Source of the DNA: a virus
Lineage: Duplodnaviria; Caudoviricetes
Direction: 5' to 3' (one strand)
Virus record (IMG/VR): IMGVR_UViG_3300005326_000013
Location: 1 to 50,811 of that record
DNA: 50,811 nucleotides
The position numbers were made by a program, and so were the translations under genes. This document shows positions 1 to 43,884 of the stretch, in pieces; the stretch's first letter is position 1; each line of letters starts with the position of its first letter. The notes below the pieces were generated by a model. It ran no database searches. It had not been told where the DNA came from and was given only the letters and a program-made list of their open reading frames with translations.

Positions 1-123
1 TCCTTGCCGCTTCGGCTTCCAGCTTGTCAAGGGGTACGCCTTCCTCCTTGAAAATGATGTATTCCTTATCCTTTAGAGTATAGGAGTATTCCGGACTCAT
101 AAAGACGTTCTGGATAGGGTACA
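1..123. repeat. terminal direct repeat (circular assembly overlap), copy 1
   Basis: 1-123 is identical to 50689-50811. Confidence 0.97.
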
Positions 124-787
124 CATCGAATACGGGGGTGTCTCTTTTTACCACCTTCTGCATGATAGGTTCTTGGATAACCTGCTTCATGGGGCGTTGC
201 ATGTAGGGGTCCAAGAACGGCATCCCGTCATCCGCAAGGGGTTGACCATCATCCCCAAAGGCTACCTCTTCCCGTGGGTTGTACCCGGCAATTACCTCTT
301 CGATCTCCTGTTCGTAGCACCCCTTGATAATGCCGTAGCTGTGAATGAACACGAACATTAAGAGACGGCTGATCTTCTGAAAATAGTGGGCGTCTTTGGC
401 GTTCAGAAGCTTGTTCAAGAGTTTTTTGCTGGCTTTGGCCTCTGCGATGTCCTGGGGGTCTTCGCTCTCCATGTCGTTTTCAACGAAGTCCCGTGACTGA
501 AAATACTGGCTGACAAAGTTCCCTATCTGTTTCAAAATCCGTGATACAAACTCAGGCAAGAAGATGTCCGATTCCCACTCGTTCGGCTTATCCTTGCGGA
601 CACAATGAAGAAGGTCGTAATACTCCTTGAAGTCGTCGATTTCATTAGACTTATTGGACTGCGCTACCGTCCATTCATCGCTCAGGATGGACAAGAGCCT
701 TTCCTGAACGAGTTCGGGAATGTCCGAGTCCGACTTCAGTTTTTTGTCCGCTTTTTTGGTCTTGCCCTTGTTGTAGTATCGGCTCAT
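1..787 (-). CDS. portal protein, N-terminal part (continues across the origin into 49421-50811)
   Basis: Hand-translated from ATG at 787 (ATGA overlap with the upstream stop): MSRYYNKGKTKK...DVYPIQNVFMSPEY, in frame with the ORF at 50788; about 684 aa total. Confidence 0.88.
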   Translation of the reverse strand, partial: MSRYYNKGKTKKADKKLKSDSDIPELVQERLLSILSDEWTVAQSNKSNEIDDFKEYYDLLHCVRKDKPNEWESDIFLPEFVSRILKQIGNFVSQYFQSRDFVENDMESEDPQDIAEAKASKKLLNKLLNAKDAHYFQKISRLLMFVFIHSYGIIKGCYEQEIEEVIAGYNPREEVAFGDDGQPLADDGMPFLDPYMQRPMKQVIQEPIMQKVVKRDTPVFDVYPIQNVFMSPEYSYTLKDKEYIIFKEEGVPLDKLEAEAAR

Positions 788-1407
788 CTTCCCTGCCCCA
801 TCTTCGCTTTAAGGGCCTGCATAAGCATCTGCATCTTGTCGCCACCGCCTTGACCCATACCACCCATAGAGGGCCTCTGTTGCATCTGAGGCATACCCTG
901 CCCCCTACCGGCCATCTGGGGCCTTGGCTGCATTTGTGGTCTGGCTTGCCCACCTCCCTGCTGTTGCATTTTGGCCTGCATAAGCTTTTGCATCATGGCT
1001 TGGCGTGGATCACCCCCGCCTTGGGCTCCGCCGGCACCAGGCATGCCCTGGGGCTGTCCCTGCTGCGCCTGTTGCTGTTTGGCCATAGCCGCCGTCTTCT
1101 GCCGATTCACAAACCATTCCAGCATGGAGTTGACGTTCTCGGGCATGAGCTTGTCTTCGGCAGTATCGAACCACCTGCCGTTGTCGGTCCTCTTGAACCG
1201 GTCAGGATGGTTAGGGGTCCGGTATTTAGCCTGAAGCTCCCCGCCTTCCCCTACCTTGATATTGCCCTCATCAAAGGCAGTCTTGTAGTCGTACACATTC
1301 CGTGGGTCGTTCGGGTCCGGTGGAAGGCCATACCGCTTTGCCATGTCAGAATACCAATACTGAAAGGCAATCTCCTTGTTCCTGTCGCCACCTTTGCTGT
1401 TAGCCAT
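784..1407 (-). CDS. hypothetical protein with small globular N-terminal domain (YDY...KYRTPNHP) and Q/M/G low-complexity tail; possible virion protein
   Basis: 207-aa ORF between terL and portal, translationally coupled to portal. Confidence 0.6.
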   Translation of the reverse strand: MANSKGGDRNKEIAFQYWYSDMAKRYGLPPDPNDPRNVYDYKTAFDEGNIKVGEGGELQAKYRTPNHPDRFKRTDNGRWFDTAEDKLMPENVNSMLEWFVNRQKTAAMAKQQQAQQGQPQGMPGAGGAQGGGDPRQAMMQKLMQAKMQQQGGGQARPQMQPRPQMAGRGQGMPQMQQRPSMGGMGQGGGDKMQMLMQALKAKMGQGR

Positions 1408-1585
1408 TGGGTAGAAACTCCGCTTTGAATTCCATGATGTCTTTTCTGGGTATCATAAATGTTTTATTTCCTTGAAGTATTTTGATATTCATTGTATCAA
1501 AATCTTCACTCCATTCATAATCCATATCGGGATCAAAATCTGGAATAAGGTGTTTAAATACCGATGCTGCAAATAATCTATCCAT
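1400..1585 (-). CDS. small AT-rich hypothetical protein (61 aa)
   Basis: ATG at 1585 overlapping the terL end, GGAG-type RBS upstream. Confidence 0.55.
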   Translation of the reverse strand: MDRLFAASVFKHLIPDFDPDMDYEWSEDFDTMNIKILQGNKTFMIPRKDIMEFKAEFLPNG

Positions 1586-3131
1586 ACGCTCGTCTCCTCC
1601 CCTGAAACAGCGTTGAAGATTGATAATCGCTCTTGGGGGTATCATAGAAAGTCGGGTTAAGCGCCCCTAAGAACTCGATATTACGGCAAAAGTCAGACCA
1701 TTTCTCCGACACCCGTTTCACACTTTTGATCGCCTTGACGCTTTCCTGTCGCCATTCGACATGTCGCCAGTTGGTGAAGTGTTCCCTATGAACCTTGCAG
1801 TTGGAAAGAAACCATAGGGTCGGTCGGTAGTACCCATACTTCGGGTCCGGGGGTTCCATATCGGCCAAGAGGTTGTTCCCCATCCGTTTGCAATCCAAGG
1901 CGTTCTTCATCCTGAGTTTGATGTTCATACGGGCAGATTCGTTTTTGGTCTGGGCCTCGACTACCCTTCGGAGCCCGTAATCCCCTCTTCGGAGATCCTC
2001 AAACACGCTATACCCAGTATTCGCCTGTTTCATCTTGGACAAAGGGTCAATAAGGGTCGCCCGATTACACTCGCTATCCTCTGGAATAAGGGACTCAGCT
2101 TTAATCAAGTCCCGGAGTTCAATCGTGGTCACGTTGTCATGCCGGGCCACAAGCTCCTTCCACACAATCCATTCATGCCGGGGGGTGATAGCTACATAAC
2201 TCACATACCAGGGCTTACTGGGGTGATAGTCAATTATCCGGTAATGCCAGTATGTTGCAAACTCCCGCGGGTTGAATACGGCGTCAAAATCCTTGATATG
2301 AACAAGCGGGTCGAAGCTCTTGTACACCCTGCCCGACACTTGCCGAAAGACCCCATACCGTCTCATGGCGAGTTCGTCTTCATCGTCTATGTCGGAAAAG
2401 ATTCTCTCGATGGTATCCTTATTTATAACCGGATTATCGTCAGTCGCCCAACAAAACGCCTCAAGGCTGGCCGTGGTATCATTTTCTTCAACTGCCGGTA
2501 GCCCAAACTTCCTCTGTATGGTTTTACTCCGGTATATCCTCCTGGCCCTCTTCCATATCATGTCAAAGGTCCAGTCAAGGCCACGGACAGGAGTAAGGTT
2601 GATAGTAACATCCCCGCCCTCAATGATGAGCCTCATGTGGTTCTCATCCCACTTGGTACGGTCAATTTCCTCGTCCTGGTAGTAGGCCGCCCGCTGAACC
2701 GACATAAAGGCGTCTATATCCTGCTTAGACGACATGAACTCGATCTTCCTGTCTGCCCCCCCGTAGCGGTCCCTCACCGTCATTTGACTTGACCGGGCCG
2801 TCACGTCCTTCTTGATAAGCTCGGTAGGGAAAAGCCGCTTAAACTCCACATATTGCTGATTTTCCTCATCATCATCCGACTTGGGAAGGCACTTGCTTAT
2901 GCACCGTATGGGCTTCTCGAACCTGTTCCGCTTGGGGACAGGATGAATCCCTAGGAGCCTCATGGCCGCATCCAGCATACAGACGACGGTCCCACCTGCC
3001 TGATTCCCTTTGAACAAGGCCCGGGTGTCGGCCTCAGACATGAAATACTTGTACGCCGTCGGATGAGGCTTGAACTTGCTCAGCACCGCCTGCTGAAGAG
3101 GGTCAACCTTTATGGCAGGAGCGTCAACCAT
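1578..3131 (-). CDS. terL: terminase large subunit
   Basis: ATPase with Walker A variant KGNQAGGT, Walker B YYQDEE and LTP coupling motif; RNase H-like nuclease (IIDYHP, IDP, DFCRN); upstream of portal. Confidence 0.9.
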   Translation of the reverse strand: MVDAPAIKVDPLQQAVLSKFKPHPTAYKYFMSEADTRALFKGNQAGGTVVCMLDAAMRLLGIHPVPKRNRFEKPIRCISKCLPKSDDDEENQQYVEFKRLFPTELIKKDVTARSSQMTVRDRYGGADRKIEFMSSKQDIDAFMSVQRAAYYQDEEIDRTKWDENHMRLIIEGGDVTINLTPVRGLDWTFDMIWKRARRIYRSKTIQRKFGLPAVEENDTTASLEAFCWATDDNPVINKDTIERIFSDIDDEDELAMRRYGVFRQVSGRVYKSFDPLVHIKDFDAVFNPREFATYWHYRIIDYHPSKPWYVSYVAITPRHEWIVWKELVARHDNVTTIELRDLIKAESLIPEDSECNRATLIDPLSKMKQANTGYSVFEDLRRGDYGLRRVVEAQTKNESARMNIKLRMKNALDCKRMGNNLLADMEPPDPKYGYYRPTLWFLSNCKVHREHFTNWRHVEWRQESVKAIKSVKRVSEKWSDFCRNIEFLGALNPTFYDTPKSDYQSSTLFQGRRRAYG

Positions 3132-3294
3132 TACATTCGTCTATCAGCTTCAGGAGTTTTGTTAGTAATTTATTGTACTCACTCGTTGAATTACATACTT
3201 CGCATGATTCGAAGTGCCCACACAGGCACCTCGTCCAATGCACTTCCGGCCCTACAATAGCCACCAGTTTTTCAAGTATCTCCTTGCCGTCCAT
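3124..3294 (-). CDS. small Cys-containing hypothetical protein (56 aa)
   Basis: Hand-translated MDGKEILEKLVAIVG...CLCGHFESCEVC; GGGGAG RBS; fills the gap. Confidence 0.55.
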   Translation of the reverse strand: MDGKEILEKLVAIVGPEVHWTRCLCGHFESCEVCNSTSEYNKLLTKLLKLIDECNG

Positions 3295-3304
3295 GTTCTC
3301 TCCC

Positions 3305-3631
3305 CTATCTCTGTTTTCCCCAAACTACTTTGTAATTTTTACTGAACCAATCCGCATCGTCTTCGCTATCAAACTCTATGTAATCGCCTGTCTTTTTAAC
3401 CTCTTGGAAAGCCTTGTCAGGGGCATATTCTTTGAGCTTGTCGCCCCTTTGAAGTATGGTGGGGAATACGATATACTTTCCGTCTTCCTCCATGTATGCC
3501 ATTTTGTGAGAGGCTACTTCCCCATTCCCGTAGTCAATTTGTGGATATTTTTCAGGCTCAAGAATCCTTTTGACAAATGGCTTGTCCTTGTTTTGCATGA
3601 GGATTTTTACTACTTTAGCCCAATCATCCAT
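3305..3631 (-). CDS. hypothetical phage protein
   Basis: 108-aa ORF tightly packed in the late operon. Confidence 0.7.
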   Translation of the reverse strand: MDDWAKVVKILMQNKDKPFVKRILEPEKYPQIDYGNGEVASHKMAYMEEDGKYIVFPTILQRGDKLKEYAPDKAFQEVKKTGDYIEFDSEDDADWFSKNYKVVWGKQR

Positions 3632-3634
3632 AGC

Positions 3635-4504
3635 TTAAAAATAGCACACAACCTCTACCTTGCCAGCAGAGCCGGATGCAGCGTCACAGCACTTAAAGGC
3701 CATGATTTCACCAATCCCGCGCAACCAGTAGTTGCTCCCAGCCGTCAACAGGAAACCCATATTCGGCTCCGGGGCCGTAGTATTGGATGGGCTTGAACCG
3801 TCAATCGTGAACCGGATAGACTGCGTTTCGGCCATAAGAAGGGCAGTCTTGGCATAGTTACCAAGTTTACTGTATATCTCTTTCCCTATGGTCGGCGTGG
3901 TCACACTGGAACTGTCGCCCTGGCCTACGCCATATTCAGTAATTTCATACACCGAGGCATCGTCAAAGTAGCTGACATCCGTGTTTGCCTTGGACGCAAA
4001 GTAGATGGTCGTCAGCACACTCAGCGCCGTGAAGAACACATCCACTGCGCTTGAGAACGCCGATGCTGACGCCGTAAGGTCCGTATAAGCCACAATGTCC
4101 GCTTCCACCCCCGTCCTAGCGTTCGTGATACGGTACTGTGTCGTATCCCCGGCAGTCGTCTTGTAATAGAACCGCAAACGGTATCTGGTCCCGGCCACGG
4201 TTACAATGTCATGGTATCCATGCCCGTTGACATCGGTTGCCGTCACCTTCATGCATGTAGTGCCACCGCTATTGGTCCTATTCGCCGTTTCAGAGGCAAG
4301 TGTAGCATCCCCCGATGTCCATCCCGTAGGCGGGTCGCCTGCCGCAAAGTTGCCATACGTCAGGAGGTTCGCCCCCGTAATGCGGTAGTTGTCCTTGGCG
4401 CTTATGGGCATCCGGTAGGTGCTTGAGCTTATGCCCGTAATGGTATCGCCGGGGATGAGCTTTTCCCTCTTAAGCGGCATTCCTGAATAGTCGAAGACCC
4501 TCAT
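3635..4504 (-). CDS. putative virion protein with inserted carbohydrate-binding (CBM4/9-like) domain
   Basis: NLLTYGNF...PTGW, GTRYRLRFYYK and YFDDASVYE galactose-binding-fold motifs inside a small beta-rich phage protein (IRFTIDGSSP...GFLLTAG). Confidence 0.65.
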   Translation of the reverse strand: MRVFDYSGMPLKREKLIPGDTITGISSSTYRMPISAKDNYRITGANLLTYGNFAAGDPPTGWTSGDATLASETANRTNSGGTTCMKVTATDVNGHGYHDIVTVAGTRYRLRFYYKTTAGDTTQYRITNARTGVEADIVAYTDLTASASAFSSAVDVFFTALSVLTTIYFASKANTDVSYFDDASVYEITEYGVGQGDSSSVTTPTIGKEIYSKLGNYAKTALLMAETQSIRFTIDGSSPSNTTAPEPNMGFLLTAGSNYWLRGIGEIMAFKCCDAASGSAGKVEVVCYF

Positions 4505-4629
4505 TTCTTTTTTCTCCTTTTACCTTCAATTTTGTTCATAGTTCCGTATATATAAGCCGCTTTTCTCTTCCCCTTTAGTCCCTTCTTACGGGCTGATTTC
4601 GCCAGCGCGTCATGGATTTTCTTGGGCAT
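4501..4629 (-). CDS. small very basic protein (42 aa)
   Basis: MPKKIHDALAKSARKKGLKGKRKAAYIYGTMNKIEGKRRKKK; overlaps both neighbours (TAATG, ATGA). Confidence 0.7.
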   Translation of the reverse strand: MPKKIHDALAKSARKKGLKGKRKAAYIYGTMNKIEGKRRKKK

Positions 4630-5222
4630 TAGTGTATCGTCACGCTGAAGGACCGTTTTTGTGCCGCCATGTAGCTCAGCGCCCCACCGAACGTGCTATA
4701 ATTTACCGTTACCTTCATCCCTTGTAAGAAGTTAGCCCGTTTATCGTCAAACCGCACATCCGGGCAGCACAGTCCCCATATCCGTTTCACCGTCTCAGGT
4801 TGTTCCAGGTCCCCATACTGAAAGACCGTAACCCCCTTCATCTTCTTGATAAACTCAAGAGCCTCAAGCGAGGCGATAATAAACTTCCGAAACTCCCCAA
4901 GTACCCTTGCATCTCCCATGATCTCAGGGAACGCCCGTGTCATGCTGTAGACCACCTCAGCCGGTTCCCGTTCCACCACCACGATAGGAGCCTCAGGAAG
5001 CATCCGTCGCAAGCAAAGGGCCTTCACCGGATAAGTGTCCGCAACCCCTACATACTTCTTCCCGTAAACATCGTACGTAGTTTGCAGCACTCCCTCAATA
5101 TCCTTATCCTCATAAGTTGCAAGGATGTCGTGGTAGCACATCACGCTTTCCGTGTTGAACAGGTTCGCCAGCCATGCCGTCCTGCTCCTCGGAAGCCCTA
5201 TGATAAAGAACAGCCCCCCCAT
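4629..5222 (-). CDS. sulfotransferase-like P-loop protein
   Basis: 5'-PSB-like FFIIGLPRSRTAWL and 3'-PB-like VVEREPAEVVYS. Confidence 0.7.
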   Translation of the reverse strand: MGGLFFIIGLPRSRTAWLANLFNTESVMCYHDILATYEDKDIEGVLQTTYDVYGKKYVGVADTYPVKALCLRRMLPEAPIVVVEREPAEVVYSMTRAFPEIMGDARVLGEFRKFIIASLEALEFIKKMKGVTVFQYGDLEQPETVKRIWGLCCPDVRFDDKRANFLQGMKVTVNYSTFGGALSYMAAQKRSFSVTIH

Positions 5223-5233
5223 TATTAAGCCCC

Positions 5234-5936
5234 TTATTCTACGATACCCCCGTTTTTCAGCGCCAGAACAGACTGCTCCAAAATATACAATGGGATGTTG
5301 ATCGGTATGTCATCGTTGCGTTGAATCTTTATCATTTTTGTGTAATAACTTGGTTCTATTTTCTCACCCATGTCATTGTATTCATTATTCCAAATATGGA
5401 ATTGGTACAATGCCCCCATTTGTATATTATCAAATATCATTCGGCCTACCATTTAAATATAGACCATTTTTTCTTAGGTTCATGATATAATTCTGGATAA
5501 ACTATAGGCGGAAAAAACGTAACTAAATCATAATCATTAAAACCGTATAACAAGTTATTAATATGTAATGTCTTAGGACTTAACTTCGGGACTTTAATAT
5601 TTTTGCAACCACTTACCTTTTTATATGACATCATGCTTTCTACTTTTGGCATCACTACCCTCCCCCACCATTTTCTCCCCCGTTATATCTCTCGTAAGCC
5701 TCCATAAACTCCCGTGCCGTCAGCACCTCCACCCCCGCTTCCTGAACCACCCGTGCCCGTCGTGCCGCCTCCCTCCATGTATCCGTGGTAAACCACCCGT
5801 TTATGACCCCCTCGTACCCCTCCATCCTACTTCGAGTCAGGAGGTCGATAGCCCTTTGCGTAATCTCATGCTCACGGAGGTCGTCCGGGTCCTCTTCCTC
5901 AAGCTCAGCATCCCTCCCAAACCACGGCAATCTCAT
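5234..5936 (-). CDS. three small hypothetical genes (5234-5452, 5446-5655, 5655-5936); the first two are AT-rich
   Basis: tightly overlapping co-oriented ORFs. Confidence 0.5.
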
Positions 5937-5982
5937 GATTCCTCACATCAATTTTTATTCCCTATTCCCATCTTTTTATTCA

Positions 5983-6714
5983 TTAAAAAGTAAATAAACC
6001 GCTATATATATCCCACCATTGGTTAATATCGTAACCTAACACATTCGTTACATAATCATAAAGCTCTTGTGATGTCATTCCCTCCGCATAATCCGTAGTT
6101 CCACCAGAGTCATATTGAGCACCATTAGCTATCCATTCGTTGTAGACAGCCTCCGGTATCATTTGCAAATTCCCACTAGCATCATATACCGCCACATACC
6201 CATTCCCAGACTGCCCGTAAGCCATCTCAATTACTGAATCATTTGATGTGGCTACGTAATCCTCGCTCATAGACGGGTCAGACTGTACAAATTGCCCCGT
6301 ATTCCATAAATTCATCAATTCATCTAACTTGGCATAATCCTCTTCGCTCGCGTATGCCGGAGAATACCATCCCTGTATCTGTGCCACACTTTGAGCATTA
6401 CCATAATTTCCGCTAGTTCCACTAGTCTCTATCGCGTCATATAATCCCGCTATGTAATCCTGCATGTATTGCTCTGAATTAAAATTACCTTCCTCATCAT
6501 AATAAACCGACTGGTCTTCAGGCCCGTAATATCCCACAGCCTGGTTCTTGACATTTTCCGCAGCCCATTCGTCCAATCCCTTCGCCAGGTCGTACCCGCT
6601 TTGATCCGTCATCGCAGGTTGCTGTGTCTTCCCCAAGTAAGCCTGGTAGTAAGCGTCGGTCTTAGGCTTACCCGTAGCGTATTTGCTCATAGCATAGTCA
6701 AGCAGTCCAGTCAT
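5983..6714 (-). CDS. acidic Tyr/Gly-rich hypothetical protein, possibly internal virion
   Basis: 243-aa ORF; composition resembles the ejection-like protein at 38448. Confidence 0.6.
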   Translation of the reverse strand: MTGLLDYAMSKYATGKPKTDAYYQAYLGKTQQPAMTDQSGYDLAKGLDEWAAENVKNQAVGYYGPEDQSVYYDEEGNFNSEQYMQDYIAGLYDAIETSGTSGNYGNAQSVAQIQGWYSPAYASEEDYAKLDELMNLWNTGQFVQSDPSMSEDYVATSNDSVIEMAYGQSGNGYVAVYDASGNLQMIPEAVYNEWIANGAQYDSGGTTDYAEGMTSQELYDYVTNVLGYDINQWWDIYSGLFTF

Positions 6715-6858
6715 ATCATTCCACCTTTTGCCTTAGTGTAGCTTTCTGCAACAGTCGCTTCTGGCCCTTTTGTGTTGTCCCGGAGCAGATATTTACGTAC
6801 CGGACGGTCGGCTCGCTCCTGCCCCCGGTCGTCCTCCTGCCTGTACGCCTGGGGCGCC

Positions 6859-7434
6859 CTACGTACCCTCACCGCTCTCTCCCTCTGGCGCCTCAAAAAC
6901 CCCAGAATCAACCAATGTACCCTCTGCCCCTGGCTCTAAACTAGCCCCGGAATTAGTTGACATAACACCTGGTATCGGACACTCGGCATTATCACCTACA
7001 TCTATTATATTAGGGTCATCCGTATCACCCTGGCCCTGGGCGAGGTACCATGAGCTGAATGCGTCAGTGACGCGAGCATCGGCAGGGGTAACAGTGGTCT
7101 GTCGGTTGTCTACGTATATCTGATTCAGGAGATGAACGTCTGTGTGTGGGGATGATAACCGTGTTACTTTGTGCCATTCCTTTATGGCATCCAGGGAGAT
7201 CTTATCGTCGTCTGAGCTGATATGCTTTAGGAACTTGTCTTTGACTACTGGGGCATGTGCGAGGTATCCACGCAGGGTTGTATCAACGATCTGCTTGATT
7301 TGATCGGTATTGAGGATCTGAGAGATACGCTGGTTAGATAATCCTACTGATTTAGCTATATCTAATGTAGACTGGCCATCGCAATACATTTCAGCTATAT
7401 TCAAATCTCTCCTAGTATGGTCTGTTCTATACAT
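6859..7434 (-). CDS. terS: terminase small subunit (putative)
   Basis: N-terminal HTH (STLDIAKSVGLSNQRISQIL), helical oligomerisation region and acidic tail; near the start of the late operon, upstream of terL. Confidence 0.65.
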   Translation of the reverse strand: MYRTDHTRRDLNIAEMYCDGQSTLDIAKSVGLSNQRISQILNTDQIKQIVDTTLRGYLAHAPVVKDKFLKHISSDDDKISLDAIKEWHKVTRLSSPHTDVHLLNQIYVDNRQTTVTPADARVTDAFSSWYLAQGQGDTDDPNIIDVGDNAECPIPGVMSTNSGASLEPGAEGTLVDSGVFEAPEGESGEGT

Positions 7435-7449
7435 GCTAATATATATATA

Positions 7450-7722
7450 TTAACCTATAATAGACAATGTGGATATAGAAATTATGTCTTTAGAGTCCCA
7501 GTTAGATATTTTTGAGTAGTTATCCCATTTCCAGGGATCAAACTCACTCCAAACAAAGTTGCCATCAAGGATGCCTACCATGTCTGATTGCCCTTTAATT
7601 ACCATGTCCATGAGCAGGTAGTTGTCAATATCGTTGTATTGATAATACTTTGAGAGACAGTTTGAGCATAGGACAGTTGGGTTATCAATTTTTGTATGGC
7701 AGGCTTTACAGTGCCTTACCAT
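7450..7722 (-). CDS. Zn-finger hypothetical protein
   Basis: CKAC...CSNC; first ORF after the leftward promoter. Confidence 0.5.
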   Translation of the reverse strand: MVRHCKACHTKIDNPTVLCSNCLSKYYQYNDIDNYLLMDMVIKGQSDMVGILDGNFVWSEFDPWKWDNYSKISNWDSKDIISISTLSIIG

Positions 7723-7763
7723 ACGCAGTATCCTATCCCCTGTATCCTGTATCCCATAAGAAT

Positions 7764-7792
7764 AATTTATCAGGTTTTTTTGAGTCTGTCAA
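7764..7792 (-). promoter_or_regulatory. sigma70-type promoter for the leftward packaging/structural operon
   Basis: TTGACA-17 bp-TAAATT with extended -10 TG. Confidence 0.6.
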
Positions 7793-7801
7793 GTGAAATC
7801 C

Positions 7802-7835
7802 GTTCAAAAACTGAACTGAGTACAAAATATTGTAC
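7802..7835. promoter_or_regulatory. tandem palindromes GTTCA-N5-TGAAC and GTACAA-N4-TTGTAC (candidate enhancer/operator sites)
   Basis: inverted repeats at 7802-7816 and 7820-7835 in AT-rich intergenic DNA. Confidence 0.45.
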
Positions 7836-7980
7836 TTTCGGATACTTTGTACCCAGGGAACGGGTATCCAGTTTTGATATATTTGGATTCAATTTGCATA
7901 ACAGGATATTAATATTATATATAACCTGGATCAAGTATATGGATACTATGTATCCGTATATAATAGGCTACAGTCAATAA

Positions 7981-7993
7981 TATCAATAGGTTA
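7981..7993 (+). promoter_or_regulatory. IHF binding site
   Basis: TATCAATAGGTTA matches WATCAANNNNTTR exactly. Confidence 0.6.
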
Positions 7994-7997
7994 TGTA

Positions 7998-8014
7998 TTG
8001 GCATGAGGGTTGCT
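7998..8014 (+). promoter_or_regulatory. sigma54-type (-24/-12) promoter
   Basis: TTGGCATGAGGGTTGCT with GG(8000-8001)-N10-GC(8012-8013); RBS at 8043-8050 downstream. Confidence 0.6.
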
Positions 8015-8058
8015 TATGTAAAAGGCAGTCACAAACACTAACAGGGGAGGGCGCAAAA

Positions 8059-8422
8059 ATGCAGAAATACAGTGTGGAATGGAAACAGGCGCAACAAAAT
8101 AGTCAGGGCGGATGGGCGCAGTATCACCGGGGAGCCAGAAAACGGCAGAACGAATTTAACAGGGCGAATCACGAATATCTACGACTATGCAGATTGCCCC
8201 ATTGACTGCCTCAAAGGTCCGCACGTAAAAACAGGCTTTGTCCTCCGATTCTACCCTAAAGGGTGGGGTATTTACAACGGAGCAATCCAACACGTAAGTA
8301 AGCGAAATGTCTTCGCAATGCTTGACTGGTTGCATGAACAGCAAGCAAAACCACTCACAAACCTTTTTGAGAAACAGGAGGTGTTTCATGATCCGAACCG
8401 ATCCCACAATGTTGGTCTATGA
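8059..8422 (+). CDS. first gene of accessory block 1; frame ambiguous (48-aa ORF 8059-8205 or +1-frame ORF ending at 8422)
   Basis: strong RBS fits ATG 8059, but the longer ORF is in the +1 frame. Confidence 0.4.
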
Positions 8423-8855
8423 TGCCACAGAACAGCCGTGGACGATAGGGTATGGTGGCAACCCTGGCGACGATTTTGGAGTTATCGTAAGTCCTCACCG
8501 AGATCGTGCTATATGCAACCTTGAGCCAATAGACTACAAGATCGAAAACGCAAGGTTGATTTGTGCAGCTCCGCCCCTACTCAAGGTTGCTCAAAAGCTG
8601 TTGTTGTGGATGGAAGAATGCTCCTTGGCCTGCGATTTCAACCACGACGACATGGACCTTTACCACGAACTCAGGCAAGCGATCAGGACAGCGGGGGGAT
8701 TTTCAAGTGACACTTGGTGGTGGCAAGGACCCTGCATATGCAGCACATGCAGCCACGCATGGCAAGGTGTTGTGGAAATACCGGTCGAGGCTACGTGCCC
8801 GCAGGTTGACCTTGAATGTAGCGAATGTCACCAGATGACAGGAGGTCCGGCATGA
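8388..8855 (+). CDS. hypothetical protein, PW...NARLIxAAP phage family with C-terminal Zn ribbon
   Basis: TEQPW...ENARLICAAPPLL; CSTC/CSEC; CAGGAGG RBS. Confidence 0.7.
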   Translation: MIRTDPTMLVYDATEQPWTIGYGGNPGDDFGVIVSPHRDRAICNLEPIDYKIENARLICAAPPLLKVAQKLLLWMEECSLACDFNHDDMDLYHELRQAIRTAGGFSSDTWWWQGPCICSTCSHAWQGVVEIPVEATCPQVDLECSECHQMTGGPA

Positions 8856-9154
8856 GCCTGATGCAGCATTACGACAAAGTCATCACTCGGATGCAGGCCG
8901 ACATCTGTCGCTTGATCGAAGAGAAGGCCGAAATCGAAGCTTGCGTTGAAATGCTGATATCTATCCGGGACCAAGCTCGCGCAGTACACGCGACCGGAGC
9001 AGGAACCTACAACGACAAAAGGACCTCTGTTGACCGTAAAAAGCTATCCGCGCTTGGACTCATAGTTAAGGAATCGTACAAAACCATCCCTTCGGAATTT
9101 AACAGCTCCGAAGCGGAAACCGATGTCAAAAGCACTACCGGTGAGTCGTTATGA
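8852..9154 (+). CDS. coiled-coil hypothetical protein
   Basis: RBS plus ATGA overlap. Confidence 0.6.
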   Translation: MSLMQHYDKVITRMQADICRLIEEKAEIEACVEMLISIRDQARAVHATGAGTYNDKRTSVDRKKLSALGLIVKESYKTIPSEFNSSEAETDVKSTTGESL

Positions 9155-9325
9155 TAAGGGTTGCACAAGGGGAGAGGGATGGTGGAGATGGCATTCTATC
9201 CGAAATGATACGGAGTATTCCGCCGGGCAATACCTCACACGGACGGATTGCGAGCGATCGAACCGGGTTTTTACCTGGGAATAACCCCCACCCCGCCCCG
9301 CTCCGGGGGGCACAGGAGGAACATC

Positions 9326-9664
9326 ATGGAACATACACCGGGACCATGGAGAGTTTTTAGAACTCATAAATTGAGCCTGGACTACTGGTATGTGATAACC
9401 GATGCGAAAGGATATGGCCCAATCATGGATGTTGGCGGCCGAGACCTGAATGGGCAAATCGCGGAAGCAAAACACCTTATTACTGCCCCGCGTGAAATCG
9501 AAGCCAACGCCCGCCTCATCGCCTCCGCTCCGGAGATGTTGGACTGCCTCCGGGCTGCTATCGCCAGGGTAGAGGTCGCCAATGCCGAAGGGGACGCCAT
9601 CATTTCGGCATGGCTGCTGAGCGCAAGGGCCATCGTTGCTAAGGCGGAAGGGAGGAACTCATGA
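9326..9664 (+). CDS. hypothetical protein, HTPGPW...ANARLIAAAP phage family
   Basis: MEHTPGPW...EANARLIASAPEML; AGGAGG RBS. Confidence 0.75.
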   Translation: MEHTPGPWRVFRTHKLSLDYWYVITDAKGYGPIMDVGGRDLNGQIAEAKHLITAPREIEANARLIASAPEMLDCLRAAIARVEVANAEGDAIISAWLLSARAIVAKAEGRNS

Positions 9665-10287
9665 AAATGAAAATGGGGAGGGAGTTGGTTGCCGGGGACC
9701 GCGTGTTGATCGTTGAGGCAGGCGGGCTTATTGTCGCCCGCTATATCAAAAGCGTGGAAAGATTAGAAAACTGGATCGAAGTCTCATTGGACATTAACAA
9801 GCTGAAATCCATCAAGCTCGCCGGGCCGCTTGACAACGTCCTGGTCATGGAGGATTAACATGAAACACTTTTGCATAGGCCTGCTGTTCATCGCCGGCGT
9901 CATCCTATGCACAAACGAGGGCGCGTCGTTTCCGTGGGTCAACATGGGAGGTATCACACTTTGCGCCCTGTCCGTGGTATGGGCAAGGGTATAGGGGAGG
10001 GAAAAATGGATATGAAAACAAAAATATCACAAGCTCTCAACGGAGAATACAAAGGAATTGACGGACTTATCGCCGTTGCGTATTGGATAGGAAAACATGA
10101 CGGCGTAGTTGAGGTATGCGACAAGCATAGAGCCATTATCTCCGCCATGAGAGATAGGGCCAGGGCCGTCCGTTATCATCACCTTGCCAACAATGTCATT
10201 GGGCAAGGGCCAGGCCAAATATATCATCCGGACTATTCATCAGATTTCCCCGACTGGACGGTTGAAGAAATCAACCCTGTCCTTTAA
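9661..10287 (+). CDS. three small genes (9661-9858; 9860-9994 two-helix membrane peptide; 10006-10287)
   Basis: each has a GGAGG-like RBS; the 44-aa MKHFCIGLLFIAGVILC... was hand-translated. Confidence 0.6.
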
Positions 10288-10294
10288 ATATTTC

Positions 10295-10326
10295 AAAGCC
10301 CTGGGCATCCACCCCAGGGCTTTTTT
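10295..10326 (+). terminator. rho-independent terminator where the plus and minus blocks converge
   Basis: AAAGCCCTGGG-catccac-CCCAGGGCTTTTTT. Confidence 0.85.
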
Positions 10327-10341
10327 ATTGCCTATCGCCCC

Positions 10342-10848
10342 TTAAGGATGTTTATCTATCATTCCATCGCAATAATCAGCCAATTTAGAAATACTATCCC
10401 AAAATTTATTGTCAAGCGACTTATCGAGTCTCCAAGATGTTTTGATTTGGCCCGAGCAGGCCAAGTGCGCCATTACTAGCGCAGGGTTATCCGATACTTT
10501 CCATGTATCGTCTCTGGGATCATAGACCCTGAGCCCTTCCACTGGAAATAAATATTAATTCATAACTTTGATGCCTATTTATACTTAATATCTAAAGAGT
10601 TCCATTAATAACAGGATCTATAATACTTCCAGCCCGTTGATCCGCTCTCTTGTACTGTTTATGTTATCATCAATTAGCCTACGAATCGCTTCTATACAAC
10701 AAGTAGCCTCATCATCAAAATGCATTTCCTTTATCTCTGGACTATCATAATATTCACCAATAGCGCTCTTTAATTTTTGCAGTTCATCCAGAACGACTTT
10801 CAACCTATTGTATTTGTCGATAGCAGATATAATACTTTTTACTTTCAT
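10342..10848 (-). CDS. two AT-rich hypothetical genes (10342-10542, 10618-10848)
   Basis: co-oriented ORFs at the end of the replication operon. Confidence 0.5.
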
Positions 10849-13244: not shown

Positions 13245-15446
13245 TTAATCCGCCCATAGCCTTTTCTCTCCTCCATCGGTATTTAACCTAGAAGTTGCCT
13301 CATCGTTTTTCTTATTTAAAATACCTGCCACTTGGAAAAAGAACCCGGTCCCGTCTTTAATAAAATCTCTTAAATAACTGTCCTCTGATATTCGCTGCAT
13401 TTCTTTAAATACATTGATATTTTGAAACTTAGCCTGCCATTTTTCGATTTGATTAATTGTTATACGTTTTTGAACATTACCCATGGTCCTAACATAAAAG
13501 TCTGGGTCTTCATCTCCTGCCTCTAGTTTCCTGGCCACGGCCTCACGGTTTACTGTTGCGCTATTCTGCCATGCCCCAAGTGTGGTCAGCTTGAACCCGT
13601 TTTCTATTTTAAAGTGAAGTTCATGCCTATTAATATTGGTTCCTATAAAATGCTTTGCCTTTATTATTTTTAATGCACAGACAATGCTATCAGGTAAAAC
13701 AGCTATATTATCAAGTGCCATATAAAGCCGAGCTTTCTCACCAGTCGCCTCTCCACCCCTGGCATATTCGCTTCCGCTTTTTTTCTGAATACAAATCATG
13801 GCTACCCCATTATTGAGGGAATCATATATAGCCCGAATTGAGGATGGAATCTTGAAATATTCTCCTTCAATTTCTTCCAGATAATCGACACATGAAAGAC
13901 CATCGGGATTGAAATGTTGGATTGCCGCATCAAAGTCATAGCTTTTGCTCGCCACTCGAACCTTTTTCCAGTCCGACATGGGACGATCAAACCACTTTAT
14001 CCGGCTTTTGTATTCCGAACCACCCATCTCGGACATATAATAATCAATCTGATATTCCTGATGGAGATTTATATGGATGGTGTTCAAAATGAGGGCTGTC
14101 TTTCCTGCGTTTGACGAGCCAGCTAAGACGATGATGCTGTGGGGAGGAATTAAAACTTTTTCATGAAGCCCGAAGGGCAAAATTATAGGGAAAGCCCTTT
14201 CCACCTCTGCGTCTAGATCTAGCCACTCGACATGGGTGTCGGTGACGTAGTACATTCCCTTCTTTTTCTTATCTCTCTTTATCTTATTATATAGAACTAG
14301 TCTTGTAAGTATGACAGAACGGTTGTTTTTCTGCCCTCGGGTGGTAAGGCAAAACTCCCTATCTAGCTGTTCAACGGTGAAACAACCGACTGAATTTATT
14401 ACCCATTCTTCTATGGCTACCGCGAGGCTGTTTGGTTTCCTATTAACAGGTTCCTGCTTACACGTGCTTACATCCTGCTTACATCCTGCCAACATTTGCT
14501 TACAACTGCTTACATTGCTTACATAGGCTTTCTTGTCATCATCTAGGCTTACATCAAGAGCCTCCTGCTTACATGGATCATCTCCTACCGTCGCAACTTC
14601 TAAATTATCCTCAAGGAAACTAAACTCTCTGGGTTTCAAAATTCCACCTGACAATCCACTGGCGATTGTGGCCCTAGCTTCCTTTTCCTCAAGCCCGATT
14701 CCAACGGCAGACGCCAATAAGGCGGTTTCAACGTGGCCTTTGTCTAATAATCCGGCACCAACGAACTGCCCAAGATTGAAAGCTGAGGCGTTCAAAGTAA
14801 CGTTTCGAGTGTGGAGTGGGGCAGATGTTAGGGATACCAATTCGGAAGCAAAAGCCTTGTTCGCGTAGGACGATTTTCCGTTACTGTTGGGTAGTAAATT
14901 TTGAGCTTGTTGAAGGCTTGTTTCCGGCTTTGATTCGACCAAAAACAAGAGCCATTCTGGAGCTGCTATCAATGGATGCTTTCCTACCCATCCGTACCAT
15001 TTGCCGGAAGGATGCCCGGACGGTGGAAGAATCACATATCCTCCATCCCCCCTGACATCTAACCGGGGACCAATTTTACTTGCAGAATTGCGGATTATTC
15101 TATCAGTTGGCCATATCCAAAATAATTGGCATCCTCCGCCACCCGTTATTTGCATTAGTGTATCTGGTAGCTTTTCATATTCATTTTCCAATGCCGAAAG
15201 ACTTTCTGACCCCCCTGGCTCGTCAACATCAAGCACCCATTTTCCGCTTGCAGGGCCGGTTGGCATACCAATTGAAGCCCCGGGGTGATCTCCCCACCAG
15301 CGGATAATCTGGTTTAAATCGGTTGTTGCTTCTTTGAACCCTAGCTTAGTATATGGGTGTTTTGTTTCTCTTACGCAAGGAAATACTGGTATTCCCTTTT
15401 TCGCGTATCCTAACGCATTTTGCATAATTTGTCGATCTGTCGCCAT
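13245..15446 (-). CDS. bifunctional primase-polymerase fused to winged helix and RecA-fold helicase
   Basis: PVFPC, IGMPTG, VLDVD, LDVRGDGGYVILPPSGH (Prim-Pol); Walker A LAGSSNAGKT, MSEM, CVDYL. Confidence 0.88.
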   Translation of the reverse strand: MATDRQIMQNALGYAKKGIPVFPCVRETKHPYTKLGFKEATTDLNQIIRWWGDHPGASIGMPTGPASGKWVLDVDEPGGSESLSALENEYEKLPDTLMQITGGGGCQLFWIWPTDRIIRNSASKIGPRLDVRGDGGYVILPPSGHPSGKWYGWVGKHPLIAAPEWLLFLVESKPETSLQQAQNLLPNSNGKSSYANKAFASELVSLTSAPLHTRNVTLNASAFNLGQFVGAGLLDKGHVETALLASAVGIGLEEKEARATIASGLSGGILKPREFSFLEDNLEVATVGDDPCKQEALDVSLDDDKKAYVSNVSSCKQMLAGCKQDVSTCKQEPVNRKPNSLAVAIEEWVINSVGCFTVEQLDREFCLTTRGQKNNRSVILTRLVLYNKIKRDKKKKGMYYVTDTHVEWLDLDAEVERAFPIILPFGLHEKVLIPPHSIIVLAGSSNAGKTALILNTIHINLHQEYQIDYYMSEMGGSEYKSRIKWFDRPMSDWKKVRVASKSYDFDAAIQHFNPDGLSCVDYLEEIEGEYFKIPSSIRAIYDSLNNGVAMICIQKKSGSEYARGGEATGEKARLYMALDNIAVLPDSIVCALKIIKAKHFIGTNINRHELHFKIENGFKLTTLGAWQNSATVNREAVARKLEAGDEDPDFYVRTMGNVQKRITINQIEKWQAKFQNINVFKEMQRISEDSYLRDFIKDGTGFFFQVAGILNKKNDEATSRLNTDGGEKRLWAD
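14456..14573. repeat. GCTTACA iteron-like array (8 exact copies); putative replication origin
   Basis: copies at 14456, 14466, 14477, 14498, 14508, 14517, 14547, 14567, plus a degenerate one at 14488. Confidence 0.6.
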
Positions 15447-18817: not shown

Positions 18818-18955
18818 TTACCCTCCCTTTTCCTTTTGCGTATATGCGTCAATTGCCCGGCGTACCAGCTCCGCTACGGAAAGGCCGGTCTTACGGGCAA
18901 GCCCCTTGAGGGTCTTTCGCTGTTGTCCTGTGAGGTGGATGTTTGTTCGTTTCAT
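18818..18955 (-). CDS. ribbon-helix-helix (CopG/Arc-like) DNA-binding protein, 45 aa
   Basis: MKRTNIHLTGQQRKTLKGLARKTGLSVAELVRRAIDAY; below the ORF-track cutoff. Confidence 0.85.
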   Translation of the reverse strand: MKRTNIHLTGQQRKTLKGLARKTGLSVAELVRRAIDAYTQKEKGG

Positions 18956-18961
18956 GGCGGT

Positions 18962-18990
18962 ACGGTACGCCTACCGTGCGCACTTGTCAA
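18962..18990 (-). promoter_or_regulatory. leftward sigma70 promoter, probably giving a leaderless RHH mRNA
   Basis: TTGACA-17-TACCGT; ATG begins 7 nt past the -10; palindrome ACGGTA-N4-TACCGT overlaps the -10. Confidence 0.6.
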
Positions 18991-19029
18991 GAAAATAAAT
19001 TGGGTATTTTGAATACCCATTTTTTTCTC

Positions 19030-19058
19030 TTGACATGGGGAACGGGTTTTGCTAATAT
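19030..19058 (+). promoter_or_regulatory. rightward sigma70 promoter for accessory block 2
   Basis: TTGACA-17-TAATAT. Confidence 0.75.
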
Positions 19059-19109
19059 TCGACTTGCCAACCTAGCGGAGCCCTCCGACCAAACCCAAGG
19101 GAGGGAGCC

Positions 19110-27959: not shown

Positions 27960-28400
27960 TTACAGCTTCAGAAACGTATGCCCACCGATCACCGCTACGG
28001 GCTCTACGCCTACCGCCCAATAGGGGATCTTCTTGACTACGTTGTGGGCATAGAAGTGGTTTGCGCCTTTAACAATATCCCGTGTCCAGTTATGGTAAAC
28101 AATCCATGCCGCAGCACATATTTCTTTCCACCACACTTCGGCCCTGCGCTGACGGAAGTATTTAGTATACAGAAGGGGGGGGATCTCATCGTCGAAAATC
28201 AGCTTGCCCAATGGGGCCATGGACTCAAACTGAGCGGGCTGAAGGACAACCTCCCTGTAGGTATCAGGCCAACGCCGTTCGTTGACCCTAGTGCGTATTA
28301 CGCAGCCTACGGCCAACTTCCCCACAATTGATTCCCCCTCTGCCTCCCCACGGATACAGGCTTGCAGCCAGTCCAGTTCGCTAAGATCAGATGGTTTCAT
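27960..28400 (-). CDS. cell-wall hydrolase (SleB/Hydrolase_2 family), putative endolysin
   Basis: EAEGESIVGKLAVGCVI, VVLQPAQF, GANHFY, IGGHTF. Confidence 0.88.
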   Translation of the reverse strand: MKPSDLSELDWLQACIRGEAEGESIVGKLAVGCVIRTRVNERRWPDTYREVVLQPAQFESMAPLGKLIFDDEIPPLLYTKYFRQRRAEVWWKEICAAAWIVYHNWTRDIVKGANHFYAHNVVKKIPYWAVGVEPVAVIGGHTFLKL

Positions 28401-30871: not shown

Positions 30872-32524
30872 TTAATACCGTTCGGTTGTGATGTAAAACG
30901 TTGTGCTCCCCGTGGTCAGGGCTGATGTGTTGCCGTCTGTCGTGTCGATGGTGGCGTATATCGCAGTCGTGCCCGTCCAGCTTGGCAAATACCCGCCCTG
31001 GATCTGGGCCGCTCTGGTCATGGAAGTTCCCATGTCGGCGTCGGCAAGACCCTTTGTGACAGCCGCCGTCTTCACGTCGTGAGCTGCTAGTATTTCAGCC
31101 CCGCCCTCTGCTGTTACCCCTACTTCAAGGGTTGCCGCTGATACCGTCCCGCCAGTGTAGGCCGCAGTCGTGTCAGAGTAGAATCCGACAATTTTGGTCT
31201 TGGCCGGGAGGGTAGCGATCACGATCCCTTTGGTGGTGTCGGAGTCAGTGTAGGCCGCAAAGGTGGTTGTAACTTGGTAGACTTGGCGATTAACCTTGCC
31301 AGTATGATTGACTGTGATCCCTGTGCCTGACCCTTCCGTGATGTTGGCAGTTGAGGTGCTAAGGTTTCCGGTTACTGAAGCATCCCCCCCGCTCGGCGTC
31401 ACGGTCAGGTCGCCCGTAGCAGGCACGGCAAAGTCCACGTAGTTGGAGGCGCTTCCGTTGCTGTCGTCATACGTCAGGCGGAGGTTGGCACCAGTGGCGG
31501 AGTTGATTTCGACGGCTTTGTCGGGGGAGGTTGTGCCGATGCCAAGGAGGCCAGTGTTTAAAAGTTTTAAAGCACTGCCAAACGTTACATGATTGGTAAT
31601 ATTTGGAATAGTAAATCCGCCTCCACCATGAAAAGTAGCGTAATCAGCAGAGTTTGATTCATCTCGTAAAACTAAGTTGTTCAGGCTTGAAGTGTATATA
31701 GACCAATCATTATTGTCGGTATCAGTTAGCAGTATTTTAGGGGTAGCACTTTTCAATTCCAGCGAGACAGTTGGTGTCGTTGTACCTATTCCAACATTGC
31801 CAGCAAAGGAAGCCGGGCTCTTCACCGTCAAATTCCCCTCAACCGTCACATCCCCCGTCGCGTCAGTCAGGGCCTTGTAGCTTATGGCGGAGATGGTAAA
31901 TCGGCTTGTGCTTGACGGCGTGATGATAAGTTTGCCCGTGGTGGCTGCCGTAATGTAGTCCGTGTACGTGGTAGCAGCGGCAAGGGTAGTGCCAGTTACC
32001 CCACCGAGCGTGTAAGTGGCCGTCCCCACTGACCACGCCGAAAGGGTGATGACGACCTTGTACGTAGTGCCTGCAACGATAGTAGTTGCCGCTGAAGGCG
32101 TCTGCGTGCCCGTGCCGTCAGCGTTCTTGATAAGGCCAGGGCCAACAATCGGCGACTCCCATCCCGCACCCACTGTCCAGTTGCCTTCCGTAAGGGCGGG
32201 GGCAAGCTCAGCGCCTAGTGTGGCGTTGACGGTGAGGTTCTTGCCTGCCGCAGTGGTGCCGACAGTGACAGACCCGGAAGATGCGACGTTCCCCCCACTC
32301 ACGCTCAGCGGGCTATCGGCAAAGCCAGCCCCGGCAGCGCTCATGTACGGCACGTTGCCGTCCGTAACGCCCGTGAGGTCGATGGTGACGAAGGTGGGGG
32401 AAGACCCGCTACTAAGATCTTGAGGCCCCCCGTGGATACCCTGGCCCCCTAGTTGAGCGTAGGTCAAGTGCGCCAAGCTCCAGAGTATGACGAATCCCAG
32501 GACAATCCCAATGTACTTTTTCAT
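30872..32524 (-). CDS. fibre/spike-like protein with N-terminal signal peptide
   Basis: Thr/Gly-rich beta repeats GNVGIGTTTP and GIGTTSP; MKKYIGIVLGFVILWSLAHLTYA leader. Confidence 0.7.
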   Translation of the reverse strand: MKKYIGIVLGFVILWSLAHLTYAQLGGQGIHGGPQDLSSGSSPTFVTIDLTGVTDGNVPYMSAAGAGFADSPLSVSGGNVASSGSVTVGTTAAGKNLTVNATLGAELAPALTEGNWTVGAGWESPIVGPGLIKNADGTGTQTPSAATTIVAGTTYKVVITLSAWSVGTATYTLGGVTGTTLAAATTYTDYITAATTGKLIITPSSTSRFTISAISYKALTDATGDVTVEGNLTVKSPASFAGNVGIGTTTPTVSLELKSATPKILLTDTDNNDWSIYTSSLNNLVLRDESNSADYATFHGGGGFTIPNITNHVTFGSALKLLNTGLLGIGTTSPDKAVEINSATGANLRLTYDDSNGSASNYVDFAVPATGDLTVTPSGGDASVTGNLSTSTANITEGSGTGITVNHTGKVNRQVYQVTTTFAAYTDSDTTKGIVIATLPAKTKIVGFYSDTTAAYTGGTVSAATLEVGVTAEGGAEILAAHDVKTAAVTKGLADADMGTSMTRAAQIQGGYLPSWTGTTAIYATIDTTDGNTSALTTGSTTFYITTERY

Positions 32525-32536
32525 TGTCGTTACTCC

Positions 32537-43192: not shown

Positions 43193-43884
43193 TGCTGTAC
43201 CGCCGCTTTAGGTGGCCTTACGTTCTCGCCCGTGAACCCCTCAGACCGCGTGATTTTGACCCGGTTCCGGCTGTTGATCCTCATGCGGATAAGGTTCCTC
43301 ACCCGTTCGCTCAGGAAGTTCATCCAAGACTGTTCGAATTCCACATTATACTCATCCCTGTTCTGGATACGGATAGCCAAGTTTTCAATGAATATAGGGT
43401 CGAACAACCCATTGAAAGGCATGGTATCCGTAGTCGCAGCCAGGGTGGTCTGGATTTGCCAGTACGGTATCTTGATGGTGTACGCCTGGTCCGGGGTGGG
43501 CAAAAAGTATACACTATTGGCCCCGTCCACGTAGAACCGTTCCGGTTGCGCCTCATTGGCCGCACCCGGAGAGAATCCTATCTTGGCCTTGGCGGAGGTG
43601 AGGTGGATCTTAGTTCTTGTGGAAGCCGCCTCAATCCATCCGTATTCATCCGGGGCATACATGGTGGTAGCAAAGTCCGTATAACTGGCCGTACCATCCA
43701 CCGTGGTAATAGACCCCTCAGTCTGCCCTATATCAGACCCTTCCTCCGCGCAGATAGCCAAGACCCACTTCACATCCTCGTTAAGCCACTGGATAACCTC
43801 AGTCGAAGATGGTTCGCTAGAGGCGTCCAGCGTAAGGGATACCCGGTATCCTACAGCCGTTACAATACTGGCAACTGTTGACAT
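43189..43884 (-). CDS. head-tail adaptor / tail tubular protein A, paralogue 1
   Basis: ITTVDGTASY, YFLPTPDQAYTIKIPYW. Confidence 0.7.
   Translation of the reverse strand: MSTVASIVTAVGYRVSLTLDASSEPSSTEVIQWLNEDVKWVLAICAEEGSDIGQTEGSITTVDGTASYTDFATTMYAPDEYGWIEAASTRTKIHLTSAKAKIGFSPGAANEAQPERFYVDGANSVYFLPTPDQAYTIKIPYWQIQTTLAATTDTMPFNGLFDPIFIENLAIRIQNRDEYNVEFEQSWMNFLSERVRNLIRMRINSRNRVKITRSEGFTGENVRPPKAAVQQ

Follow-up and report, generated by a model that had tools for sequence, protein, structure and literature searches.

Promoters that depend on sigma-54 are switched on only by the action of a host ATPase, itself activated by a signal, and two of them, pspA and glnHp2, carry a site for integration host factor (IHF) and parallel in their architecture the element described here. 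Two control regions of phage lambda also invite comparison: OR with PR and PRM, the divergent promoter/operator switch of a temperate phage, and cosB, in which repeats bound by gpNu1 and the IHF site I1 lie upstream of the small terminase gene. We analyzed a 50,811-bp stretch of DNA from a virus of the Caudoviricetes (IMG/VR record IMGVR_UViG_3300005326_000013; hereafter the window), in which a sigma-54-type -24/-12 box lies in a 336-bp gap between a long leftward gene block (block A) and a short rightward one (block B). Judged from its sequence, the box at 7998-8014 may be a genuine enhancer-dependent sigma-54 promoter of block B, a reading that comes close to an even balance without reaching it. 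If real, it would be a sigma-54 promoter of canonical type that is unusual in its location, rather than a new type of element, and a phage operon behind such a promoter would be a simple, testable way of conditioning expression on host physiology.

Match and placement of the sigma-54-type box

The GG and GC dinucleotides of the box are exactly 10 bp apart, the spacing of TGGCA(C/T)-N5-TTGC(A/T)-type sites, and of the 13 positions specified in the consensus YTGGCACG-N4-TTGCW the box agrees with 12. No other site in the genome reaches this number; 200 shuffled genomes contained such sites at a mean of 0.21, with at least one in 19.5% of them. The box was then scored with a position weight matrix (PWM), the counts of which were taken from the 42 intergenic-sense sites of Escherichia coli in Table 1 of PMC4591121, a chromatin immunoprecipitation sequencing (ChIP-seq) study of sigma-54. 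With 16.26 bits the box is the maximum of the genome (runner-up 13.86) and ranks at the 47th percentile among sites generated from the matrix, that is, a median-quality E. coli-like site, and it is identical to the tabulated yeaG motif at 15 of 17 positions. The original prediction had named the box together with an IHF site, two palindromes and a ribosome-binding site with its ATG, all of which were confirmed where it had placed them, and had proposed scoring with an RpoN matrix against background, which returned the box as the top site of the genome and of median quality.

Placement is what sets the box apart. Equally good sites arose by chance at 0.243 per shuffled genome (300 shuffles, same matrix), so a box of this quality is not rare in a phage genome, and taken motif by motif the chance values in the gap are modest; the position is the rare and unusual part. 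Non-coding DNA within 150 nt upstream of a start makes up ~3.8% of strand positions according to a crude gene caller, giving a chance expectation of ~0.009 equally good sites per genome in a promoter-like position (0.243 x 3.8%), and the expectation for the + strand of the 336-bp gap is ~4e-4. The box lies in non-coding DNA and faces the first gene of block B; transcription is predicted to start at ~8025, which places GG at -25/-24 and GC at -13/-12 and leaves 34 nt to the ATG at 8059. Among the 42 intergenic-sense E. coli sites, 35 lie within 100 nt of a gene (PMC4591121), and the predicted phage start likewise falls within 100 nt of the start codon. Just upstream, an exact match to the IHF consensus (Table 1) is one of three in the genome, where 2.2 are expected (P = 0.046 within the gap), and its 5' flank (7960-7980) is A/T-rich by eye, so that in sequence it qualifies as a putative IHF site.

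A conventional promoter for block B was not found. Block A and the rightward block that starts near 19.1 kb (block D) each have a promoter of the form TTGACA-N17-TGnTA..T, unlike block B. The promoter scan of 7735-8058 returned no rightward sigma-70 pair over the tool thresholds, as the original prediction had anticipated, and on the + strand its only matches were at 7622-7649 and 7705-7734, each 9/12. A looser scan yielded the two weak rightward candidates listed in Table 1. No phage-encoded sigma-54 was detected by PF04552, and no phage-encoded activator by PF00158 (E up to 1) or by a six-frame search for GAFTGA-type motifs; the earlier observation that the phage open reading frames (ORFs) lack GAFTGA therefore holds.

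The proposal of a sigma-54 promoter draws on how well the box matches, on how it is oriented and spaced, on the IHF core beside it and on the dyads upstream; block B is moreover a closed transcription unit for which no normal promoter was found. Host RNA polymerase carrying sigma-54 would dock at 7998-8014 as the promoter for 8059-10287, and the closed complex formed there would remain inactive until reached by an AAA+ enhancer-binding protein of the host, seated on the upstream dyads. A bend induced by IHF at 7981-7993 would bring this protein to the polymerase, where it would then hydrolyse ATP, and the accessory block, including a mobile cassette, would thereby be coupled to a host signal. 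Were the block to fire only with an activated host enhancer-binding protein, the phage would sense a stress or nutrient signal of its host with no sensor of its own.

A host equipped for this mechanism is plausible. Gram-negative Proteobacteria generally carry rpoN and IHF, and the endolysin relatives, 12 of 12 among the matches listed (591 matching records), are from phages of Gram-negative Proteobacteria. Together with the canonical sigma-70 promoters, these relatives make a Gram-negative host with rpoN and IHF plausible on sequence grounds. The Prim-Pol/helicase gene (13245-15446) has as its best and only full-length match in the phage collection a virus labelled Methanomicrobiales (37% identity, 97% cover) and also matches a Methanosarcina virus; the remaining genome is bacterial-looking. 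The archaeal label was rejected as a pointer to the host in view of the murein hydrolase, with its relatives in phages of Gram-negative bacteria, and of the canonical sigma-70 promoters. The labels of metagenome-assembled genomes (MAGs) containing cassette contigs were mutually inconsistent (Nitrospirota, Bacteroidota and an archaeon) and were left unused as a clue to the host.

Table 1 Features of the gap and of the surrounding gene blocks. Positions are those of the window; distances with a sign refer to the predicted start named in the remark.
Feature	Position	Strand	Remarks
Sigma-54-type -24/-12 box TTGGCATGAGGGTTGCT	7998-8014	+	GG 8000-8001, GC 8012-8013 (GG-N10-GC)
Shine-Dalgarno AGGGGAGGG and ATG	8043-8051; 8059-8061	+	strong ribosome-binding site; first rightward ORF
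IHF core TATCAATAGGTTA	7981-7993	+	exact match to WATCAANNNNTTR; -44 to -32 of predicted sigma-54 start
Palindrome GTTCA-N5-TGAAC	7802-7816		-216 of sigma-54 start; ~-52 of leftward promoter
Palindrome GTACAA-N4-TTGTAC	7820-7835		~-197 of sigma-54 start; ~-70 of leftward promoter
Dyad O1, GGATAC-N3-GTATCC	7941-7955		perfect; centre -77 of sigma-54 start
Dyad O2, GGATACTTTGTACCC	7840-7854		1 mismatch; centre -178 of sigma-54 start
Extra GTATCC	7864-7869		near O2
Dyad O3	7719-7733		2 mismatches; over ATG of first leftward gene
GTATCC boxes in leftward leader	7728, 7742, 7749 (within 7719-7754)		direct copies
Leftward sigma-70 promoter TTGACA-N17-TGnTAAATT	7764-7792	-	start ~7757; 10/12 plus TG; near-consensus
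-10 hexamer TATAAT	7959-7964	+	perfect; -35 TATATG 2/6, unusable; start ~7971 (looser scan)
Extended -10-like TGaTATATT	7875-7883	+	weak sigma-70 candidate; start ~7890 (looser scan)
Block D sigma-70 promoter TTGACA-N17-TGcTAATAT	19030-19058	+	near-consensus
Block A	from 7722 via record start into structural genes	-	long
Block B	8059-10287	+	short; small genes of unknown function
Block C		-	replication genes
Block D	start near 19.1 kb	+	rightward block
phrog_1273 paralogues in block B	8388-8855; 9326-9664	+	assigned with PHROGs
Intrinsic terminator	10295-10323	+	11-bp stem and T run; strong hairpin closing block B
First leftward gene	7450-7722	-	90 aa, Cys-rich; relatives not found
Second leftward gene	6859-7434	-	191 aa, N-terminal helix-turn-helix
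Mobile cassette within block B	8128-9175	+	similarity to other phages starts and stops abruptly at its ends

GGATAC repeats and competing readings of the gap

The most pronounced departure from chance in the gap is the recurrence of GGATAC/GTATCC boxes, which the original motif inventory, correct in what it listed, had overlooked. Seven copies are present where 0.24 are expected, and the maximum among shuffles was three (n=2000). Three 15-bp dyads (O1-O3) lie 101 and 121 bp apart, with O1 occupying the spacer directly upstream of the TATAAT hexamer at 7959-7964. A second perfect GGATAC-N3-GTATCC dyad is located at 43837-43851, in the 5' part of a structural gene resembling an SU10 adaptor, and two copies of a perfect dyad with 12 specified bases in 50.8 kb are far above chance. 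As the boxes are also present in the leftward leader and recur at 43837-43851, their distribution is better explained by a DNA-binding protein of the phage than by an activator of the host, and they constitute a very strong repeat signal for some DNA-binding protein. A candidate binder is the 191-aa helix-turn-helix protein (6859-7434), which also resembles a small terminase: among its Atlas neighbours, which serve as leads only, Terminase_5 is found in 16% of one cluster and a Terminase_2-like fold in a minority, the latter match having a template modelling (TM) score of 0.31, under the bar of the tool.

Palindromes with arms of 5+5 are also enriched in the gap (6 vs 2.15 expected, P = 0.042), and together with the GGATAC dyads they place dyads at -77, -178, -197 and -216 of the predicted sigma-54 start. 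The two palindromes at 7802-7816 and 7820-7835 had been assigned to a sigma-54 promoter and were thought able to couple it to the divergent promoter, presumed late in the original prediction. They lie at about -52 and -70 of this strong leftward sigma-70 promoter and may belong to it rather than to a sigma-54 enhancer.

The repeats are central to the reading in which the sigma-54 match is fortuitous, a real possibility that we put somewhat below even. The gap would then be a divergent phage control region with a strong leftward promoter and a weak or activator-dependent rightward promoter of sigma-70 type, at TATAAT 7959-7964 or TGaTATATT 7875-7883, and a phage-encoded dimeric protein bound to the GGATAC-N3-GTATCC dyads would govern both. 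As O2 is flanked by O1, within the promoter spacer, and by O3, which covers the leftward start codon, cooperative binding or looping could be envisaged. The number and spacing of the dyads, the position of O1 immediately upstream of a perfect TATAAT and a helix-turn-helix protein encoded two genes away all agree with such a region, and sites of sigma-54 quality arise at 0.24 per genome on the E. coli matrix, with one in the DNA of relatives. Phage operons without a -35 box mostly rely on phage activators, which also counts for this reading. Among the titles and abstract openings covered, none described a host enhancer-binding protein driving a phage promoter; PMC7693777 is about a sigma-54-like phage protein and not a promoter. 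Against a fortuitous match, the rightward sigma-70 candidates are poor, with a best -35 of 2/6 and none over the tool thresholds, and even the perfect TATAAT is unremarkable at 35% G+C (~0.4 expected on one strand of the gap, a rough estimate). The placement of the box (~4e-4 on the E. coli matrix) and the adjacent IHF core (0.046) would moreover be left to coincidence.

It is improbable, in our estimate, that the box is a real docking site for the sigma-54 holoenzyme without being a working promoter, either silent or holding a parked polymerase that modulates or blocks sigma-70 transcription from upstream. The quality of the motif equals that of E. coli sites bound in vivo, 85 of 135 of which are intragenic (by subtraction from Table 1 of PMC4591121) and which the authors call 'binding site', not 'promoter'; the box also lies downstream of both weak sigma-70 candidates. 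Its orientation, the 34 nt to an ATG with a strong ribosome-binding site and the IHF core are, on the other hand, what a working promoter needs. A slim chance is likewise given to the GGATAC repeats and IHF core forming a packaging site (a cosB-like small-terminase array) or an iteron-type origin, with the sigma-54 box incidental; this proposal concerns the repeats and is compatible with either promoter reading. Seven direct and inverted hexamer copies do lie beside an AT-rich stretch and an IHF core, the terminase-like minorities among the neighbours of the 191-aa protein point the same way as far as such leads go, and the 123-bp terminal repeat may reflect no more than a circular assembly and so need not mark the true genome ends. 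No adjacent large terminase was recognised, however, at 1578-3131 or 49421-50788 with Pfam, PHROGs or NCBIfam, and the Prim-Pol replication gene (13245-15446) is 5 kb off.

Returning to the box as a sigma-54 promoter, several findings weigh against it. The box is a single site in a genome where 0.24 would be expected somewhere by chance, and only 5 bp separate it from the end of the IHF core. One equal-scoring site (16.3 bits) occurs in 135.6 kb of related phage loci, at L008 2512-2528 on the contig of a distant relative, where it overlaps the start codon of a helix-turn-helix gene on the opposite strand; it was taken as a chance match at a non-promoter place and served as a base-rate control. 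The GGATAC repeat family looks phage-specific, and a sigma-54 box of equal quality accompanied paired GGATAC dyads at 0 of 21 unrelated metagenome loci. None of the upstream dyads from -77 to -216 could be tied to a known activator, and the virus record names no host. The gap and both leftward genes are orphans in all collections searched; the downstream genes do have relatives, and these lie within other genes or behind a sigma-70-like promoter. In E. coli itself, sites bound by sigma-54 are mostly not known promoters, with 50 of 135 intergenic (Tables 1 and 2 of PMC4591121), and by their own account the authors do not know the productive subset.

What stood of the original prediction of a host-regulated sigma-54 promoter was the PWM score, the orientation and distance, and the lack of both a phage activator and a rightward sigma-70 promoter; its account of the gap had to be corrected for the GGATAC boxes, the palindromes and the cassette. 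Taken alone the case is weak, with a single box and no relatives. More doubtful still is the fuller picture of a lytic-type phage of a Gram-negative host that would keep a cassette-bearing block under sigma-54 and use the GGATAC dyads at -77 and -178 as the enhancer of a host activator. The fragment 7790-8060 is short, well defined and directly testable in a surrogate host.

Gene blocks, relatives and the mobile cassette

The window is the whole virus record, which has a completeness rating of complete and a 123-bp terminal repeat. The genes are laid out in four blocks (A-D). Recognisable products are the Prim-Pol primase (13245-15446), a murein hydrolase of the Hydrolase_2 family (27960-28400; Pfam, 55 bits), a capsid protein and two SU10-type adaptor paralogues. 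Family assignments are rare, with PHROGs matches for 6/27 and 10/35 proteins and the majority without a family, and neither a large terminase nor a portal was recognised among the long ORFs (1578-3131, 49421-50788 and 30872-36465) with Pfam, PHROGs or NCBIfam. The left arm (1-7722) encodes nearly all orphan proteins. Two ORFs within the gap (7696-7980 on the + strand and 7770-7934 on the - strand) were rejected as genes, since they belong to no family and their composition is implausible.

A second divergent control region was noted at 18955-19060. It includes, besides the block D promoter at 19030-19058, a seemingly near-leaderless gene for a 44-aa ribbon-helix-helix-like protein behind TTGACA-N17-TACCGT, and a 19-bp palindrome, TGGGTATTTTGAATACCCA, at 19001-19019.

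Relatives of the gap were not found by any of several routes. Megablast of 7400-10400 against phage records gave no match; viral contigs scanned with the proteins of 6859-7434, 7450-7722 and 1578-3131 as seeds contained no relatives; and both leftward proteins, searched against 5.8 billion proteins, returned only themselves. DNA of 6800-8130 was present in 0/5 related virus records. The exact 17-mer of the box occurs at six loci in viral contigs, none of them otherwise like the window, and a metagenome scan for the pair O2...O1 yielded 21 loci, none related by blastn or tblastx. Altogether, DNA to the left of 8128 is shared by 0/8 viral loci, 0/10 genome loci, 0/5 related records and 0/21 metagenome loci. 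Coverage by contigs of four other runs is limited to 8107-9217 and 9420-9621, besides a few identical low-depth pieces in X10, and no RNA datasets were listed as holding the stretch.

Block B had been described as an accessory operon at 8.06-10.3 kb. It does form a closed unit with a terminator, whereas 8128-9175 proved to be a mobile cassette that is found in unrelated contexts elsewhere. Searches of the block B proteins against Pfam, NCBIfam, PADLOC and PDB sequences were without match, and the AlphaFold model of the 8388-8855 product, with a predicted local distance difference test (pLDDT) score of 46, was too poor for a structure search. Similarity to the cassette was found at 18 loci, 8 viral and 10 binned into MAGs (including L003, L005, L023, L025, L001 and L016). 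Copies in L003, L005 and L025 share the left end of 31-35 nt with 100% identity; identity at the right end is 93-97%, and this end provides the ATG that overlaps the stop of the last gene. The copy in the window is ~720 bp, or two small genes, shorter than those of L003, L005 and L025. An RtcB gene of L005 is interrupted by the cassette precisely between Pfam profile positions 290 and 291; both halves remain translatable, and GGGGAG is found at each of the two cassette junctions. In L004 the main gene of the cassette lies behind a sigma-70-like promoter and a divergent regulator gene. Many variants of the cassette occur at high depth in wastewater, lagoon and seawater runs. Reading the cassette as an intron was rejected, as Rfam had no match in the window or in L005. 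As the similarity is confined to 8128-9175, the downstream genes are uninformative about the promoter in this phage, beyond showing that it was not passed on together with them.

Within the second phrog_1273 paralogue, a segment of ~40 nt in 9499-9544 recurs in many contigs of unrelated runs, with differing flanks on both sides, which suggests either a very conserved core motif of the phrog_1273 family or a recombination hotspot.

Comparison with described systems

The putative promoter is most like the Proteobacterial sigma-54 promoters exemplified by E. coli yeaG, ddpX and pspG. As judged against the tabulated E. coli sites, it shares with them a median-quality GG-N10-GC box, with 15 of 17 positions in common with yeaG, and a start-to-ATG distance of 34 nt; an IHF core lies between the box and the upstream dyads, and no sigma-70 promoter overlaps. 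It differs in that the phage genome around it has no gene for either sigma-54 or an activator, that no neighbouring regulator gene indicates the enhancer, and that the IHF core is very close to the box (-44 to -32). The silent or intragenic sigma-54 sites of E. coli (Bonocora et al. 2015, PMC4591121) resemble it as high-scoring boxes with no demonstrated transcript or known activator; unlike them, the phage box is intergenic, faces a gene and is 34 nt away, which is the class that holds the known promoters in that study.

With lambda OR the gap shares back-to-back promoters and three spaced dyad copies, one over a -10/-35 spacer and one over the leader of the opposite gene. The phage dyads are 101 and 121 bp apart, in contrast to the adjacent operators of lambda, and no repressor or integrase gene recognisable with PHROGs or Pfam flanks the gap. 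A further likeness is to lambda cosB, in that short direct and inverted repeats with an IHF core are placed just upstream of a small helix-turn-helix protein, in this phage at the head of the long leftward block. Here, neither a cosN-like nick site nor a large terminase could be recognised, and, unlike cosB, the phage array contains a strong promoter.

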